NCBI GenBank assembly: GCA_948806215.1
Contig: CAQIDI010000002.1
Span: 93,602-157,601, forward strand
DNA length: 64,000 bases
Direction of reading: 5' to 3'
Origin: an uncultured Eubacteriales bacterium
GTDB lineage: Bacteria > Bacillota > Clostridia > Christensenellales > UBA1242
The position numbers and the translations under genes were made by a program. The notes beneath the pieces are model-generated. The model made no database searches and was not told the DNA's origin. It saw only the letters and a list, made by a program, of their open reading frames with translations. Shown one piece after another: positions 42,212 to 59,183 of the stretch (within the stretch, counting starts at the first letter, position 1; each line of letters begins with the position of its first letter).

Positions 42212-42421
42212 CTAGTTAAAAAAATCGTTAGGATTTATTTTTAATATTTCGCAAATATTTAGAAATGTATTTAAACTAATATTTATTTTACCATTTTCAA
42301 CATCGCTAATATACCCTTTGTTTTTACCTAATTTTAAACTTAACTCATAGGCTGAAATATTATTATTTATTCGGTATTGATAAATTTTAAAACGAATGTT
42401 TTTTAGTTTTTTACTATACAT
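42212..42421 (-). CDS. XRE-family helix-turn-helix protein
   Basis: 69 aa. HTH pattern ISAYELSLKLGKNKGYISDVENGK. TATAAT ends 7 nt before the ATG, and there is no SD. Confidence 0.7.
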   Translation of the reverse strand: MYSKKLKNIRFKIYQYRINNNISAYELSLKLGKNKGYISDVENGKINISLNTFLNICEILKINPNDFFN

Positions 42422-42512
42422 ATTTTTATTATAATATACTTTTACATTTACCTAATTGAATAGTATTCCATATAACATAAAAGTGATTGTTTTACGATGG
42501 TTAATTTTTTAA

Positions 42513-42734
42513 TTAATCGTTTTTAATACCTAAAAGATAATCCACTTTAACATTAAAAAATTTGGCTACTTTAATTAACATTTTAATCCGTGGTTCTTTA
42601 CCTCTATTTTCCCAATCGTAAAGGGTTGACCTATTAATTTGCAATAATTTTGAAAGTTCTAAATAACTAAAATTATTTTTTAATCGTAGTTCTTTTAATC
42701 TTTCACTAAATTTATTAACTTTATTATTTTTCAT
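42513..42734 (-). CDS. XRE-family helix-turn-helix protein
   Basis: 73 aa. ERLKELR...YLELSKLLQINRSTLYDWENRGK...VAKFFNVKVDYLLG. TAAAAT ends 7 nt before the ATG, and there is no SD. Confidence 0.75.
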   Translation of the reverse strand: MKNNKVNKFSERLKELRLKNNFSYLELSKLLQINRSTLYDWENRGKEPRIKMLIKVAKFFNVKVDYLLGIKND

Positions 42735-42829: not shown

Positions 42830-42858
42830 TTGAAAAAAAATGTTTTATAGAGTAAAAT
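42830..42858 (+). promoter_or_regulatory. Putative mnmE promoter
   Basis: TTGAAA, 17-nt spacer, TAAAAT. The canonical start at 42867 lies 9 nt after the -10. Confidence 0.5.
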
Positions 42859-52683: not shown

Positions 52684-55077
52684 TTGGATAACAAGAAAAA
52701 AAGTAAAGCATCCGGAATTTTAACAGTAATAATTTTAGTTCTGGCTGTTATTTTAGTGTTTTGGCTAGCTGGTTCAGGAAGTAACGGAAAGCGTATTGAC
52801 TGGACATCGTTTGAAAATATGATGGAAGCAGGAGAAATTTCCGATGTTTATTTAAGCAACGGAATTGGAAAAGTTAGAAGGGTTGATAGTAACATAACCG
52901 ACCGTGACTGGCCTAAAAATTCTGATTATTATTTCGAATATGTGTTTAGCGCACAAATAGAACGCATTTATGAATTTAACGATAAAATTAACAAAGCAAA
53001 TGGCAAGGGATTAGAAGCAAACGAAACCGCCGACGATTATATTGCATACAAAAACTTTGCAAGAATTTCGATTGAAAGTGTTCCTGCCAAACCTAGTTTC
53101 TTAGAAACATTGTTGCCATATGTTAGCGTTGTTATTGTTTTAGTTATTGGCATTTTAATGTTTAAAATGTTAAGTGGCAAAAGTAGCCCGGCAGGTGGCT
53201 TTGGAAAAAGCAAAGTAAAACTAATGGATAAATCCACAGTTAAGTTTGACGATATTGCCGGTGCAGAAGAAGAAAAAGAAGAAACCAAAGAAATTGTTGA
53301 GTTTTTAAAAAATCCAGAAAGATTTAAAAACTTGGGCGCAAGAATACCAAAAGGTATTTTGTTAGTAGGACCACCGGGAACAGGTAAAACCTTGCTTGCA
53401 AAAGCAGTTGCAGGGGAAAGTAATGTTCCGTTCTATTCTATTAGTGGTTCTGACTTTGTGGAATTATATGTTGGTGTGGGTGCAAGCCGTGTTAGAGATT
53501 TATTTGATACAGCAAAACAACATTCACCTTGCATTGTGTTTATTGATGAAATAGATGCAGTTGGCCGTCAGCGCGGAGCAGGGCTTGGTGGCGGAAACGA
53601 TGAAAGAGAACAAACATTAAACCAACTATTAGTAGAAATGGATGGTTTTGAAAGTAACACCGGAATTATTGTGTTGGCAGCAACCAACCGTGCCGATGTT
53701 TTAGATCCAGCACTACTTCGTCCGGGTAGATTTGACCGTCAAATAATGGTTTATCCGCCAGATGTTAAAGGTCGTGAAGGAATTATTAAAATTCACGCTA
53801 AAAACAAACCTATCGATCCAGAAGTTAACTTAACTGCAATAGCCAGATTAACAAGCGGATTTACTGGTGCAGATATTGAAAACTTCCTAAACGAAGCCGC
53901 AATTCTAGCAGCGCGTGATGGAAGACTTACAATAACAATGGAAGATATTACCGAAGGTATTAACAAAGTTGTGGCTGGCCCTCAGAAAAAGAGCCAACTA
54001 ATAACCGAAGAAGATAAAAAAGTTACAGCTTATCACGAATCTGGACACGCAATTTTATCAAAGCTTTTAAACTATGGCGAACAAGTTCACGAAGTTTCAA
54101 TTATTCCTCGTGGAAACGCAGGCGGATTTACTTTAAACCGTCCAGATAACGATAATAATTATATGTTCTATAACAAACTATGCGATAGAATAACCATGAC
54201 AATGGGTGGCAGAATTGCCGAAGAATTAGTGTTTGGCGATATAACTCCGGGTGCTAGTTCCGATATTGACCACGCAACCAAAATTGCAAGAAGAATGGTT
54301 ACCGAATGGGGTATGAGCAAAAACCTAGGATTTATTAACTTGGGTAGTTCAAACGAAGTGTTTATTGGTAGAGATTATCAAACACAAGTAAACTATTCTG
54401 AAAAAACTGCATCGTTAATCGATGAAGAAATTAAGGCTATTTTGGATAAATGCTATAAAAAAGGAAAAGATTTATTAACTAAAAATCGTAAGATTTTAGA
54501 AAATATGGCACAATTACTATTACTTAAAGAAACTATTTACACCGAAGAAGTTCAAGCAATAGTAGATGGCAAAGATTATAGAAAGGTTGCAGAAGAACTT
54601 GATGTTAAAGAAAAAGCTGCTGCCGCAAAAAATGCAGAACGCAAAAAACAAGCCGAAGAAGAAAATTTGCGTAAGATGCAAGAACTAAAATTAAAAGCAG
54701 CCGAAGCTTTAAGCAATGCAGGAGTTATTACCAAACAAGATTTGGAAATAATAAAAGAAGAAACAAAAAAATTAAACGAATTAGAAAAAACCGAAAAACT
54801 TGCAACTCAACAAAGCAACGAAAAAGTTGAATCTGAAAATGCTGAAACCAAAGTTGAAAAGGTTGAACAAGTTAAACCTAAAACTTCAAGCAAAGCAAAA
54901 TCAACTACTGCAAAAAAGCAAACTGCAAAAACTTCAAGCACAACAAAGGCTTCAAAATCAAGTGCTTCCGGCGAAAACAAAACCATTAGCCCAAAGACTA
55001 AAGCACAAACTAATAAAACTACCAAAAAGTCTGAAAGCAAAAAAACAAATAATAACGACCAAAACAAACAAGGCTAA
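52684..55077 (+). CDS. ftsH: ATP-dependent zinc metalloprotease FtsH with a long low-complexity C-terminal extension
   Basis: TTG start 9 nt after GGAGG. Walker [12 protein letters not shown], and the zinc site HESGHA. The last ~190 aa are Lys/Ala/Thr/Ser-rich. Confidence 0.95.
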
Positions 55078-55144
55078 TTTGCTTTGACAAAATTGTTAAT
55101 TATTATTAAACTTATTCTAGAAATAAAAACATAAGGAAATAAAT

Positions 55145-55762
55145 ATGAAAAACACTTTAACAAAAGTTTTAACCATAGTTGCATTATGCTTGTTTAGTGC
55201 TATAGCAATAACAGCAATAGTGTTGGCTATTGTTAAGCGTGATTATAACCAAGTTGTTAACTCCGATGTTATATCTATCGAAGTTAAAAAAGCAGGGGCT
55301 AGCAATGTTTATTTAAAGGATGACACCGAAGAAGAAAATCGCACCGTGTTTAACGACCTACTAAATAAATATTATCAAGGAACAAAAGAAAGCATTTTAA
55401 GTTCTTTATTCCAAGGTGCATATTCAAGCGATGCCGAAGCAGAAGTTGTTAAAACAACCACAACTGTTAGTTCGCTATCAGCTTCTAGCGAAGTATTTTA
55501 TTTAAGATTTTATTTTGGGCCAGAACAAACTTTAAAAATTAATAATAAAGTTTACGAAGATACCAGATTAACAACTCTTGATAAAACAGTTAAATTTAAA
55601 TCGGTTATTTTAAAAGTTGAAAATAACACAACATTAAACAAAGTAACTATGTATATTGTTGATAGTTCTTATCCAAGCACAAGCTATTATCAAGTTAAAT
55701 ATACAACTCATCATAGTGCTTTATTTGATTATATCGAAGATTTAGAATATCCAGGCTTATAA
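55145..55762 (+). CDS. Membrane-anchored protein of unknown function
   Basis: 205 aa: a single N-terminal TM segment, then a soluble domain. AAGGAAA SD upstream. Confidence 0.5.
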   Translation: MKNTLTKVLTIVALCLFSAIAITAIVLAIVKRDYNQVVNSDVISIEVKKAGASNVYLKDDTEEENRTVFNDLLNKYYQGTKESILSSLFQGAYSSDAEAEVVKTTTTVSSLSASSEVFYLRFYFGPEQTLKINNKVYEDTRLTTLDKTVKFKSVILKVENNTTLNKVTMYIVDSSYPSTSYYQVKYTTHHSALFDYIEDLEYPGL

Positions 55763-55783
55763 AATATAACTAAGCAAAAAAAT

Positions 55784-55809
55784 AAACACACCAATTTGGT
55801 GTGTTTTTT
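55784..55809. terminator. Bidirectional terminator
   Basis: AAACACACC-aattt-GGTGTGTTT, flanked by A/T runs. Confidence 0.8.
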
Positions 55810-56008
55810 ATTCTAAACCTAATAAATAATCTGTGGTGCATTTAAAGAATTTTGCTAGGGCAATTAAAGTATCTACTGATGGAGTGCGACTGCCTTTTTC
55901 CAATTTAGCAATACAAGCTTGGCTCAAACCAGTTTCTTTAGAAAGTTGTGTTTGAGTTAAATTATTATCTATTCGCAAATCCTTTAATCTTTCAGGAAAT
56001 TTGTCCAT
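55808..56008 (-). CDS. XRE-family HTH repressor (paralog A)
   Basis: 66 aa: ERLKDLRIDNNLTQTQLSKETGLSQACIAKLEKGSRTP...LAKFFKCTTDYLLGL. Confidence 0.8.
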   Translation of the reverse strand: MDKFPERLKDLRIDNNLTQTQLSKETGLSQACIAKLEKGSRTPSVDTLIALAKFFKCTTDYLLGLE

Positions 56009-56061
56009 TACTTGCCCCTATAAATTTTTTATAATTATATGGCAAAAGTAATAATAATGTC

Positions 56062-56090
56062 TTGACATATGGCAACTGTCATAATATAAT
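56062..56090 (+). promoter_or_regulatory. Consensus promoter facing away from XRE-A, towards the 3' end of XRE-B
   Basis: TTGACA (56062-56067), 17-nt spacer, TATAAT (56085-56090). Confidence 0.55.
56068..56083. promoter_or_regulatory. Palindromic operator OA1
   Basis: TATGGCA-AC-TGTCATA. It occupies the promoter spacer. Confidence 0.5.
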
Positions 56091-56097
56091 AAATATA

Positions 56098-56113
56098 TAT
56101 GACACTTGCCATA
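56098..56113. promoter_or_regulatory. Palindromic operator OA2
   Basis: TATGACA-CT-TGCCATA, 30 bp centre to centre from OA1. Confidence 0.5.
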
Positions 56114-56123
56114 TTATATTGAA

Positions 56124-56146
56124 TAAAAAAACGGAAAGTTCCGTTT
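56124..56146 (-). terminator. Terminator after XRE-B
   Basis: AAACGGAA-agt-TTCCGTTT, with a T-run on the minus strand. Confidence 0.7.
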
Positions 56147-56351
56147 AATAATCAGTTAAGCCTAGCAAATAATCGGTGGTGCAATCAAAAAATTTAGCCA
56201 AAGCTATCAAACAATCCAAGTTTGGGCTTCGGTTTCCAGCTTCCCACCTTGCAATGGTTGTTTGTGTGTAGTTTAATGCTTTTGCTAATTCGCTTTGCGT
56301 TAAGCCTTTTTCTTCTCGCAATTCCTTTAGCCTAATTGATAATTTATTCAT
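56145..56351 (-). CDS. XRE-family HTH repressor (paralog B)
   Basis: 68 aa: IRLKELREEKGLTQSELAKALNYTQTTIARWEAGNRSP...LAKFFDCTTDYLLGL. About 37 of 66 positions are identical to paralog A by manual alignment. Confidence 0.8.
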   Translation of the reverse strand: MNKLSIRLKELREEKGLTQSELAKALNYTQTTIARWEAGNRSPNLDCLIALAKFFDCTTDYLLGLTDY

Positions 56352-56393
56352 ACTATGTCCTTAAACAGTTGTTTTTCTTATGTATTATTAAAA

Positions 56394-56410
56394 TATGGCA
56401 GAATGTCATA
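56394..56410. promoter_or_regulatory. Palindromic operator OB1
   Basis: TATGGCA-GAA-TGTCATA: the same half-sites as OA1 and OA2, but with a 3-bp spacer. Confidence 0.5.
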
Positions 56411-56445
56411 TTATTAATATTTTACGAAAACCATTGTTTAACAAC

Positions 56446-56474
56446 TTGACTTATACCATATTGTCATATATAAT
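56446..56474 (+). promoter_or_regulatory. Near-consensus promoter divergent from XRE-B
   Basis: TTGACT (56446-56451), 17-nt spacer, TATAAT (56469-56474). Confidence 0.55.
56452..56468. promoter_or_regulatory. Operator OB2 filling the promoter spacer
   Basis: TATACCA-TAT-TGTCATA. Confidence 0.45.
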
Positions 56475-56480
56475 ATAACC

Positions 56481-56654
56481 AATCTAAATTATCTTTATTC
56501 ACGAAAACAAAAATAATGGATTTTGCGCATTAGGGGAAATTTGTTCTGTTATTTTAATCATCAAAGATAATTTAGAGCGATGGATACAGTGAAAATTGCT
56601 CAGTCGTAGGGCATTTTTCACAAAAAAAACACCACTAACCTCGGTGTTTTTTTT
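56481..56654 (+). ncRNA. Candidate structured small RNA of about 175 nt (family unknown)
   Basis: Bounded by the promoter at 56446-56474 and a terminator hairpin plus T8 at 56628-56654. A perfect 14-bp helix pairs 56483-56496 with 56563-56576. Inner helix: 56510-56520 with 56545-56555. Second hairpin: 56589-56601 with 56609-56621. No ORF longer than 9 codons and no SD. Confidence 0.4.
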
Positions 56655-56682
56655 ATTTTGTTATAACAATTTTAAGTTTATT

Positions 56683-57054
56683 TTATATTTTATTTTTTGT
56701 TTTATCGTGTTTATTATTAACAATATTAGTCGCCTTTGTTTTTTTAACTGGTTCTTGTTTTTGTTTAACTTCTTCGGTTTGCTTGTTTTCTTCTTCCATA
56801 ACGTCTGCTTTTCCGGTTAGTGTTTCCGACGACCTAAGTTTTTTAATTAGGTTTTTATAATATTGTTTTTGGGTGTGCTTTAATAGTTTTAAAATATCTT
56901 CGTTGTAAGCACCTAAAAAGGTTGTAAAAATATCGCCAGAGTTTGTTAACGAAATGGTTAACAAAGTGCAACAATTTTCATCAATTAAAGTTTGTTTATT
57001 GTTTGTGTTTGTAACTTTAAAGTTTAACTCGTTAGCTGTATCAATTTTTTCCAT
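56683..57054 (-). CDS. Hypothetical protein with a Lys/Glu-rich C-terminus
   Basis: 123-aa ORF, 13 nt downstream of ychF on the same strand. No recognisable motif. Confidence 0.45.
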   Translation of the reverse strand: MEKIDTANELNFKVTNTNNKQTLIDENCCTLLTISLTNSGDIFTTFLGAYNEDILKLLKHTQKQYYKNLIKKLRSSETLTGKADVMEEENKQTEEVKQKQEPVKKTKATNIVNNKHDKTKNKI

Positions 57055-57067
57055 TAATTTTTACTTC

Positions 57068-58165
57068 CTAAACATTAAATTTAAACAGCATAACATCGCC
57101 GTCTTTAACTACATATTCTTTGCCTTCCATTCTAACTTTGCCTTTTTCTTTTGCTTTAACAAAGTTGCCGCATTCAACAAGGTCGACATAACTTACAACT
57201 TCGGCTTTAATAAAGCCGCGTTCAAAGTCGGTGTGAATTTTTCCTGCAGCTTGTGGCGCACAAGTGCCTTTAGTAATTGTCCAAGCACGAACTTCTTTTT
57301 CGCCAGCAGTAAGATAACTAATAAGCCCTAATAAATCGTAGCCAGCAACAATTAACTTATCTAGCCCTGTTTCGGTTAGGCCTAGTTCTTGTTTAAACAT
57401 TTCTGCTTCTTCATCGCTTAGTCCGCAAAGTTCTTCTTCAAATCTTGCACAAACAACCACAGTTTTAGCATTTTCTTTTGTTGCATATTCTTTAACTTGT
57501 TTAACATAGCTAATTTCATCTTCTGGGGTTGCAATGTTATCGTCAGATATGTTAGCACAATAAATAACTGGTTTATCGGTTATTAAAAAGAAACCTTTAA
57601 TTAATTCTTTTTCTTTTTCGGTTGCCTTATAGCTTCTAACTGGTTTTTCTAGTTCCAATGTGGTTTTAAGGTTAACCAAAACTTCAAATTCGGCAGTGGC
57701 TTCTTTAGCCCCAGTTTTAACAGCCTTTTCAACTTTTTCTAATCGCTTAGTAACGGTTTCAAGGTCGGCTAAAATAAGTTCTAAATTAATTTCTTCAATA
57801 TCTCTGGTTGGATTAACATTTCCATCAACGTGAGTTATGTTAGGGTTATCAAAACATCTAACAACGTGCACAATAGCATCAACTTCGCGAATATGGCTTA
57901 AAAATTTGTTGCCCAAGCCTTCGCCACGGCTAGCTCCTTTAACCAAACCAGCAATATCAACAAATTCGATAATTGCAGGGGTTATTTTTTTTGTGTTATA
58001 AATTTCGCCTAAAACATCTAGCCTTCTATCTGGAACAGCAACAATTCCAACATTTGGTTCAATGGTGCAAAACGGATAGTTTTCGCTTGGAATGCTGTTT
58101 TTTGTTATTGCGTTAAATAGTGTGCTTTTGCCCACATTTGGTAAGCCAACCACTCCTAATTTCAT
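57068..58165 (-). CDS. ychF: Ribosome-binding ATPase YchF
   Basis: [19 protein letters not shown], a TGS-like C-terminus, and a typical length of 365 aa. Confidence 0.95.
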
Positions 58166-58346
58166 AATTTCACCTCGTTTATTTTTGCATTAAAAGCATA
58201 TCATATTTTTAAAAAATTGTAAAAGTGAATTGGTAACATTAATCATAATAATAAATTTTAAAAAATACAATTAATTATGGTTATTAATAAAAACGATTAA
58301 AAGTTTAAATTATTAGGTTTTAGTTAAAACTTAAATGGAGGGGAGT

Positions 58347-59183
58347 ATGGCAATTTGGATTGTAATAATTTTAGGAATAGTGCAGGGTGCTTGCGAGTTT
58401 TTGCCAGTTAGTTCAAGTGGCCATTTGGTTTTGTTTTATAACATATTTAACATAACCGATAACACCATTTTGCTATCGGTTATTTTGCACGTTGCAACCT
58501 TGCTTTCGGTTATTGTTTGCTATTGGAAAGATATAATAAAACTAATAAAAAATCCGTTTTGTAACACAAACAAAAAGTTGGTTATTGCAACCATTCCAAC
58601 TGTTATTATAGTCTTACTTTTAAAAAGTGTGGTGGAAAAAAGTTTTGGTGGCGATTTTATAATAATTGGTTTTTTAATTACTGCAATAGTTTTGTTTATT
58701 TCGCAAATGTTGGAAACAAAAGCAAGTAAAACAGTTAAGAATGCTTACTTTTTGTCAGAAAACAATGTTTATAACAGTATAACCGATATTAACATAAACA
58801 CTAAACAAGCATTGTTTGTTGGTGTTGCACAAGGGCTTGCAATATTCCCTGGGATATCTCGAAGTGGTTCAACAATAGCAATGGGGCTTATGTGCGGAGT
58901 TAAAAAAAGCGAAGTTGCCGACTTTTCGTTTTTGCTTAGCATACCAATTATTATTGCAAGTTTATTGTTTGAAATAATTGATGTTAGTGTTAATAAAATA
59001 AGCATTGGATTTAATCCTTTAACTTTGTTTATCGGGTTTATATTTAGTTTTTTAAGTGGATTAATTTGCATTAAGTTAATGCTTAAGTTTGTTAAAAAAA
59101 GTAAGTTATATTGGTTCTCGTTTTATTTGGTTCTGCTTAGTATTTTTTTAATACTTAATAGTTATGTTTTGTTTTTGTTTTAA
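58347..59183 (+). CDS. uppP: Undecaprenyl-diphosphatase
   Basis: LGIVQGACEFLPVSSSGH and PGISRSGSTI motifs. The ATG at 58347 lies 5 nt after GGAGG; the ORF-track start at 58335 is the alternative. Confidence 0.9.
   Translation: MAIWIVIILGIVQGACEFLPVSSSGHLVLFYNIFNITDNTILLSVILHVATLLSVIVCYWKDIIKLIKNPFCNTNKKLVIATIPTVIIVLLLKSVVEKSFGGDFIIIGFLITAIVLFISQMLETKASKTVKNAYFLSENNVYNSITDININTKQALFVGVAQGLAIFPGISRSGSTIAMGLMCGVKKSEVADFSFLLSIPIIIASLLFEIIDVSVNKISIGFNPLTLFIGFIFSFLSGLICIKLMLKFVKKSKLYWFSFYLVLLSIFLILNSYVLFLF

Follow-up and report, generated by a model that had tools for sequence, protein, structure and literature searches.

We have analysed a 64,000-nucleotide stretch of DNA (hereafter the window) from an uncultured Eubacteriales bacterium (assembly GCA_948806215.1, contig CAQIDI010000002.1, positions 93,602 to 157,601), in which two small repressor genes of the XRE family, here called XRE-A and XRE-B, are accompanied by outward-facing promoters with palindromic predicted operators in their spacers, and by an unannotated predicted small RNA (sRNA). 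We take the locus to be a switch region of phage type that the bacterial chromosome has either put to new use or kept as a leftover, and no new class of system. The reading that we favour, with slightly better than even confidence, is that it is an accessory regulatory module descended from a CI/Cro-type switch region, with a small non-coding RNA as its output; this reading is drawn from sequence comparison. The most informative relatives are a sister-species locus with the same tandem arrangement (L022), a third lineage (L114) and loci in which a homologous promoter faces a Cro-like gene (L023 and L111). The features, in window coordinates and with operators given without strand, are as follows; HTH stands for helix-turn-helix.

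55784-55806, both strands: bidirectional terminator common to orf205 (plus) and XRE-A (minus), matched on each strand in the terminator scan
55808-56008, minus strand: XRE-A, HTH-only Cro/C1-type repressor gene, 66 aa (open reading frame list; Pfam HTH_3, E = 8e-17)
56034-56063, minus strand: putative promoter of XRE-A itself, AAGACA-18-TATAAT (promoter scan; identical in L022 and L114)
56038-56053: predicted operator A0, TATGGCA-AA-AGTAATA, degenerate, 2-bp centre (two-mismatch search; invariant in L022 and L114)
56062-56090, plus strand: promoter A, TTGACA-17-TATAAT (12/12), outward-facing and without a downstream gene here (promoter scan)
56068-56083: predicted operator A1, TATGGCA-AC-TGTCATA, filling the promoter A spacer (exact pattern match)
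56098-56113: predicted operator A2, TATGACA-CT-TGCCATA, 2-bp centre, immediately past the start site predicted for promoter A (exact pattern match)
56129-56146, minus strand: XRE-B terminator, strong on the minus strand, the only strand reported by the terminator scan
56145-56351, minus strand: XRE-B, HTH-only repressor gene, 68 aa, paralogue of XRE-A (open reading frame list; Pfam HTH_3, E = 4e-19)
56394-56410: predicted operator B1, TATGGCA-GAA-TGTCATA, 3-bp centre (exact pattern match)
56446-56474, plus strand: promoter B, TTGACT-17-TATAAT (11/12), upstream of the predicted sRNA (promoter scan)
56452-56468: predicted operator B2, TATACCA-TAT-TGTCATA, 3-bp centre, filling the promoter B spacer (two-mismatch search; identical in L022)
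56481-56622, plus strand: unannotated predicted sRNA, ~140 nt (promoter B, fold and terminators; start placed from the -10 hexamer)
56589-56621, plus strand: first terminator hairpin of the sRNA
56622-56655: second terminator, bidirectional, also serving the convergent ychF-orf123 operon (A-run, stem and T-run visible in the sequence)

Paralogous repressors

XRE-A and XRE-B are members of the XRE/HTH_3 family, with HTH_3 profile scores of 61.5 and 68.9 bits against a curated cut-off of 23, and the closest solved structures by sequence are the N-terminal domain of P22 C2 and ImmR of ICEBs1. As the original prediction had described, the two genes are paralogues lying head to tail on the minus strand, and their products share 37 of 65 residues (57% identity, E = 2e-26). 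Comparison with the sister species in L022 gives dS values of 0.8 for XRE-A and 1.2 for XRE-B and dN/dS ratios of 0.07 and 0.05 respectively, and both genes are under strong purifying selection. There is no partner open reading frame (ORF) that could encode the toxin of a type II toxin-antitoxin pair of the HigA/HipB kind, each XRE gene having its own terminator, and the locus contains no methyltransferase or endonuclease gene of the sort that a restriction-modification controller would accompany.

Tandem small XRE genes are common in this group. The window itself contains a second head-to-tail pair at 42212-42734 (minus strand), for proteins of 69 aa and 73 aa, which lies a short way upstream of an mnmE-like gene at 42840 and is oriented divergently to it; the 73-aa member is ~40% identical to XRE-A and XRE-B and shares their terminal ...DYLLG motif. 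Three mini-XRE genes follow one another in L021 (1-520) with stops and starts overlapping or abutting, and the Coproplasma loci L016-L019 hold mini-XRE pairs, which in contigs of 'Candidatus Coproplasma avistercoris' (L016, 3639-4425) are found with a divergent 87-aa ORF that has a weak match to DUF6809.

Predicted operators and their half-site spacing

The pattern TATGRCA-N(1-4)-TGYCATA has three exact matches in the 64 kb, all of them at this locus, against an expectation of zero in shuffled sequences. With at most two mismatches allowed, the form with a 3-bp centre occurs in the 64 kb at B1 and B2 alone, and the form with a 2-bp centre occurs at A0, A1 and A2 and at two further positions elsewhere, both inside coding regions. 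The palindromes are built, as previously claimed, from one common half-site that is spaced by 2 bp in module A (XRE-A and its sites) and by 3 bp in module B.

The centres of the module A sites are 30 bp apart, and the distance between A1 and A2, 30 bp here, is 33 bp in L022. A0 covers the spacer and the -10 of the putative XRE-A promoter and is likely a low-affinity site for auto-repression; the homologous position in L023 is occupied by a perfect palindrome, TATGACA-AA-TGCCATA. A1 is situated 4 bp upstream of the -35 of the same promoter, an arrangement of site and -35 that recurs in an alternative allele carried by other strains. The equivalent of A2 precedes the ribosome-binding site (RBS) of the cro-like gene in L023, and A2 is absent from L114. 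On the module B side, B1 lies in the region where the promoter of XRE-B must be located.

Two comparisons bear on how these sites might be read. Between the window and L022 the half-sites of A1, A2 and B1 are kept while their centres have changed (A1 GT->CT, A2 AG->CT, B1 TTC->ATC), which is the pattern to be expected if they are operators bound by dimers. Across the relatives the spacing follows the repressor clade. All of the A-type relatives (L022, L114, L023, L111 and L109) have 2-bp centres, including L114 (88% identical; TATGGCA-AC-TGCCATA), L023 (71% identical), which has TATGGCA-AT-CGCCATA and TATAGCG-TT-CGCCATA in addition to the perfect palindrome above, and L111 and L109, whose half-site is a different one (TAATACA-NN-TGTATTA) with the centre still 2 bp. 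The B-type relatives L022 and L020 have 3-bp centres, L020 (67% identical) having ATGGCG-AAT-TGTCAT upstream of its gene. This distribution fits a contribution of spacing to specificity, and because the XRE-A and XRE-B sites share nearly the same half-site, spacing may be the main discriminator between them. Differences in operator spacing between related Cro/CI proteins have already been documented (PMC6649833).

Promoters and a predicted small RNA

Both of the near-consensus plus-strand promoters that were proposed earlier are recovered by the promoter scan at the same positions, and the -35 hexamers of promoter A and of the XRE-A promoter overlap by 2 bp, back to back. The DNA is AT-rich, and the window contains 8 sites scoring at least 11/12 where shuffled sequences contain 6.5; near-consensus promoters are thus not unusual here and the case for function rests on conservation and homology, not on consensus score. 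When the window is compared with L022, promoter B and its operator B2 agree at 29/29 positions and promoter A and A1 at 28/29, at a divergence where synonymous sites are near saturation. Nine strains of the same species (L001-L009) have no single-nucleotide polymorphism (SNP) in 56352-56480. No ORF lies downstream of either promoter in the window.

Promoter B is followed by a region that folds with a z-score of -4.9 relative to shuffled sequences. An outer stem pairs 56484-56496 with 56563-56575, the conserved motifs GGGGAAAUUUGUUC (56533-56546) and GGAUACAGUG (56582-56591) can be recognised, and the two terminators follow. In an alignment of three lineages (the window, L022 and L114) both helices are kept and 5 pairs are changed on both sides: the outer stem, of at most 15 pairs, has one compensatory A-U/G-C change and one G-U, and the terminator hairpin has 4 pairs changed on both sides. 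The stem of the second terminator is fully altered in sequence in L022 and L114 with its pairing retained. Blocks of 10-15 nt, including GGGGAAAUU(U)GUUC and GGAUACA, are conserved in all three lineages against a background identity of 64% with the sister species. We conclude with moderate-to-good confidence that this ~140-nt region is a genuine sRNA gene, having a promoter, a conserved structure, terminators and, within its promoter, the predicted operator of the adjacent repressor, an ensemble kept in three lineages.

The RNA does not belong to a described family by the searches made: with Rfam 15 covariance models run over 54000-59000 at E <= 10 there is no match in 56478-56660, DicF, 6S and type I antitoxin RNAs included, and an SpF10-like Rfam match near the locus is simply the orf205/XRE-A terminator. 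Reading the transcript as a small ORF was rejected, there being no ORF common to the window, L022 and L114, and it does not look like a decayed cro-like gene, since its frame translations are unlike the 73-aa Cro-like proteins (by inspection, with no formal scoring). The exact pattern of the L022/L114 type has no match in metagenome contigs, looser patterns give random AT-rich matches, and nhmmer yields no true sRNA among the 240 matches listed; on these searches, therefore, the sRNA is known from three lineages only.

Variation within the species (L001-L009) includes SNPs at 56166, 56172 and 56316 in XRE-B and at 56583, 56592, 56599 and 56639 in the sRNA and second terminator; position 56592 is a G in most strains, as it is in the sister species.

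What the outward promoters face in related genomes

Promoter A faces the XRE-B terminator and, beyond it, XRE-B itself in antisense orientation. The U-tract of this terminator is weak on the plus strand, and L022 has TTTTAATA after the stem on that strand. The suggestion that homologous modules might carry cargo downstream of their outward promoters is answered by the relatives. A homologous TTGACT-17-TATAAT, its spacer holding the local operator, is found in both L023 and L111 upstream of a 73-aa Cro-like HTH gene, and in L023 a second operator lies between this promoter and the cro-like RBS; L109 and L110 have kept a 43-aa remnant of the Cro-like gene and nothing more of it. In L114 an A-type promoter (12/12) and operator stand directly upstream of the same sRNA, and XRE-B does not intervene. 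The window's module A reproduces all three operators of the L023 layout but lacks the gene, and promoter A is probably best explained as a P(cro)-type promoter that has lost, or become separated from, its cargo. The resemblance to a CI/Cro region noted in the original prediction is borne out through the Cro-like gene of L023 and L111 as homology of architecture.

Promoters A and B share TATAATATAA at their -10, and the single and tandem forms of the locus could have been interconverted by insertion or duplication, or by deletion between these repeats. The lack of the A2 site in L114 tentatively favours deletion. If our favoured reading holds, repressor-plus-operator cassettes would have been exchanged in front of one and the same RNA gene, A-type in L114 and B-type here.

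A proposed regulatory scheme and its alternatives

We propose that XRE-B is a dimeric HTH-only repressor that would bind 17-bp sites (7-3-7). At B1, in the XRE-B promoter region, it would repress its own gene, and at B2, in the spacer of promoter B, it would shut off the ~140-nt sRNA, which presumably acts in trans. XRE-A would bind 16-bp sites (7-2-7) and would close promoter A by occupying A1, within the spacer, together with A2, at the transcription start. As A1 also adjoins the -35 of the promoter of XRE-A itself, whose -10 is covered by the weak A0, the gene may be subject to lambda-like autoregulation as well. Transcripts from promoter A would either stop weakly at the XRE-B terminator or read on across XRE-B in antisense, in the direction of the sRNA. 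In that case a cell without XRE-A would have less XRE-B and more sRNA output, and the two repressors would act as a hierarchical lock on a single RNA. The antisense cascade, and bistability, are purely inferential.

Several observations weigh against parts of this scheme. The promoter scan reports no consensus-like minus-strand promoter for XRE-B, and a search for sRNA targets within the 64 kb found none. Three lineages are too few sequences for a formal covariation test and the covariation support for the sRNA is thin; moreover a SNP in L002 changes the conserved GGAUACA motif to GAAUACA. Part of the conservation of promoter A may be unrelated to outward transcription, because its -35 and spacer overlap the elements of XRE-A autoregulation, and promoter A is dispensable, because some strains have swapped module A for a different XRE allele whose outward promoter is weak (TTGTCT-16-TAATAT).

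Should the model hold, the locus would be a compact natural case in which a control region of CI/Cro type has come to gate a stand-alone sRNA, with paralogous repressors possibly insulated from one another by operator spacing and not by half-site sequence. The interest lies mainly in this possible insulation of adjacent paralogues and in the sRNA itself, a new structured predicted RNA from an uncultured gut Clostridia lineage for which two repressors and defined predicted operators would offer handles on function.

The strongest competitor, though unlikely, is that the locus is a decaying relic, the leftover regulatory end of a lost prophage, integrative and conjugative element or other element, with the XRE proteins as orphan autoregulators and promoter A and the 'sRNA' without function. 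Relatives do hold a Cro-like gene, or its truncated remnant, where the window has none, cassettes are gained and lost at this hot spot, module A is wholly replaced in some strains, and the sRNA region is just 64% identical between sister species. Decay does not, however, account readily for promoter and operator blocks that are essentially invariant at dS ~1, for XRE genes under strong purifying selection, or for an sRNA whose helices are kept by compensatory changes and whose 10-15-nt blocks persist in three lineages; nor does it explain the link between promoter and sRNA being retained under two types of repressor and operator, in the window and in L114.

A stronger version of the favoured reading seems distinctly unlikely to us. 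It would make of the two paralogues, insulated mainly by the 1-bp difference in spacing, a heritable, two-tier and phage-independent epigenetic toggle in a gut Clostridia chromosome, in which loss of XRE-A leads through antisense transcription of XRE-B to release of the sRNA; the sole output would be this new sRNA acting in trans, with a possible feedback on the translation of XRE-A.

Pairing of the sRNA with messenger RNA (mRNA) was scored as ungapped helices. Pairing with the XRE-B mRNA was rejected, the best candidate being a 9-bp AU helix that is not conserved. A pairing with XRE-A is the basis of a very improbable explanation in which the RNA takes the role of Cro: the GGGGAAAUUUGUUC motif would pair with the start codon and codons 2-4 of the XRE-A mRNA and block translation, and XRE-A would repress transcription towards the sRNA, giving a double-negative loop of protein and RNA. 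The sRNA segment GGGAAAUUUGUUC (56533-56546) can form a 13-bp helix with 55994-56006 (minus strand) at -15.0 kcal/mol, which spans from the G of the AUG through codon 4 and is the best among 65 initiation regions in the window. In L022 and L114 this register still offers 10-11 contiguous pairs, the L114 mRNA has an A->U change alongside a 1-nt deletion in the motif, and the L114 sRNA promoter is predicted to be directly under an A-type repressor. Against this, the 128 kb that make up the two strands of the window contain nine further helices of equal strength by chance, and the probability of a chance helix in that region is ~0.004-0.01 for a match that was noticed post hoc. After opening costs the net energies are -5.6 (window), +1.0 (L022) and -2.3 (L114) kcal/mol, the sequence is AU-rich with a self-complementary AAAUUU core, and in the window the sRNA promoter has a B-type operator and not an A-type one.

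Relationship to known systems

The locus would work like a CI/Cro region but fails three of its defining features, the Cro gene, the mobile element and the repressor C-terminal domain. In lambdoid phages OR1-OR3 lie between back-to-back PRM and PR promoters, and the N-terminal domains of P22 C2 and 434 repressor are the reference proteins. Here too there are Cro/C1-type HTH proteins, nearest to the P22 C2 N-terminal domain, and module A has its sites A0, A1 and A2 over back-to-back divergent promoters, predicted to be weak on the repressor's own promoter and strong on the outward one, with a divergent Cro-like gene in relatives. Unlike the lambdoid regions, this locus has no Cro gene and no prophage or mobile element, its XRE proteins of 66-68 aa lack a C-terminal oligomerisation or autocleavage domain, and two modules stand in tandem with an sRNA, not lytic genes, as the predicted output. 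The operator centres of lambda are 23-24 bp apart, as opposed to the 30-33 bp found here.

Restriction-modification controller proteins such as C.AhdI and C.Esp1396I are HTH_3 dimers of ~70-80 aa; by binding pairs of palindromic boxes ahead of their own gene they achieve concentration-dependent autoregulation. The XRE proteins resemble them in being small HTH_3 proteins with palindromic sites upstream of their own gene, and have weak PADLOC matches to 'control protein' models; they differ in having neither methyltransferase nor endonuclease at the locus and in that their predicted operators also occupy an outward promoter.

The closest system in logic is DicA/dicBF of the Escherichia coli cryptic prophage Qin, in which a chromosomal CI-like XRE repressor acts on a divergent promoter whose transcript yields an sRNA, and which is a remnant of a phage-type switch showing spontaneous subpopulation switching (PMC10448788). 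Proteins are encoded in dicBF as well, the Cro-like DicC and DicB among them, and DicF arises by processing of a long mRNA (PMC10448788). A CI-like repressor gates an sRNA-bearing transcript there and would do so here; the sRNA of the window is predicted to be a stand-alone primary transcript with its own terminator, has no sequence relation to DicF, as seen from the Rfam search, and is not surrounded by a prophage remnant.

For half-site spacing the nearest parallel is that of N15 and lambda Cro, where operators of Cro/CI orthologues differ in this way (PMC6649833). The symmetry axis may lie on a base pair, in 17-bp sites, as in the 7-3-7 sites here, or between base pairs, in 16-bp sites, as in the 7-2-7 sites; the difference is that the two proteins in the window are paralogues, adjacent in one genome, with half-sites that are almost alike in sequence.

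Genomic setting of the module

Contig CASXUQ010000001.1 of GCA_949479415.1, a Clostridia metagenome-assembled genome that recurs across many gut metagenomes, matches the window with 100% identity. The XRE/sRNA module occupies ~0.9 kb, with orf205, ftsH, orf123 and ychF as its neighbours. At the syntenic junction of ftsH-orf205 with orf123-ychF in related genera the module is absent, and the junction is either empty (~250 nt) or holds metabolic genes; examples are L024 (5309-7929), L026 (6723-10697) and L025 (6607-6879), and the genes found at such junctions resemble, by inspection, those for an aldehyde dehydrogenase, a FIST-like protein and an alcohol dehydrogenase. The module is hence an insert specific to this lineage, at a site that varies, and does not belong to a fixed housekeeping neighbourhood; the place between ftsH and ychF named in the original description is a strain-variable hot spot. 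The orf205/orf123 junction is a recurrent insertion site.

There are no phage genes in the window or its flanks, blastn against phage and plasmid sequences gives short generic matches to HTH genes and nothing more, and viral contigs searched with XRE-B contain relatives at most 55% identical, so a source phage was not found in those collections. The statement that phage, toxin and mobile genes are missing nearby holds for this strain; it does not hold for other strains of the species, which have GIY-YIG, 166-aa and 199-aa cassettes at exactly this locus.

The first of these strain-specific arrangements is found in L001 (10230-10982), where window positions 56122-55867 are replaced by a 93-aa GIY-YIG gene and a different XRE allele, so that promoter A and its operators are lost together with two-thirds of XRE-A from its 5' end. 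The recombination breakpoint is within the coding sequence, where the KFFKCTTDYLLGLE region is conserved at the C-terminus, and the incoming allele retains a single 2-bp-spaced site, TATTACA-GT-TGCCATA, 4 bp upstream of an AAGACA -35. A second cassette, of 880 nt (L001, 11056-11935), is inserted in the loop of the orf205/XRE-A terminator (breakpoint 55793|55794) and encodes an acidic 166-aa protein from its own promoter; its ends are the near-palindromes AATTCCCATAGGGAATT and AATTCCCTATAGGAAGT, which suggests a mobile cassette that targets hairpins. The third is an insert of ~740 nt past the sRNA terminators (window 56654|56689; L001, 8923-9698), encoding a protein of 199 aa that has membrane helices in its N-terminal part and weakly matches DUF4760 (E = 0.002), and it alters the C-terminus of orf123 from 123 aa to 132 aa. 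Searches of the strain-specific cassettes with PADLOC and Pfam gave no assignment to a defence system, and the 166-aa ORF has no match in either.

The XRE pair might alternatively control a small island, defensive or mobile, of which this strain happens to lack the cargo (the GIY-YIG nuclease, the 166-aa protein and the 199-aa membrane protein). This is suggested by the position of the cassettes immediately beside or between the XRE genes and by generic matches of the XRE proteins to HTH regulators of defence systems (CapH, controller proteins), but we consider it very unlikely, as the cassettes have their own promoters and terminators with no operator-like palindrome upstream, match no defence-system model beyond weak nuclease-domain matches, and are lacking altogether from L022 with its tandem module, and as the stretch 56122-56654, which begins with the XRE-B terminator and ends with the sRNA, is >99% identical in all compared strains of the species, with cassettes or without.

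Next to the locus, the 797-aa FtsH homologue has a low-complexity C-terminal tail of ~110 aa (54700-55077), rich in Lys, Glu, Ser and Thr, which lies beyond the region that aligns with its relatives; tblastn matches end at residue 686.

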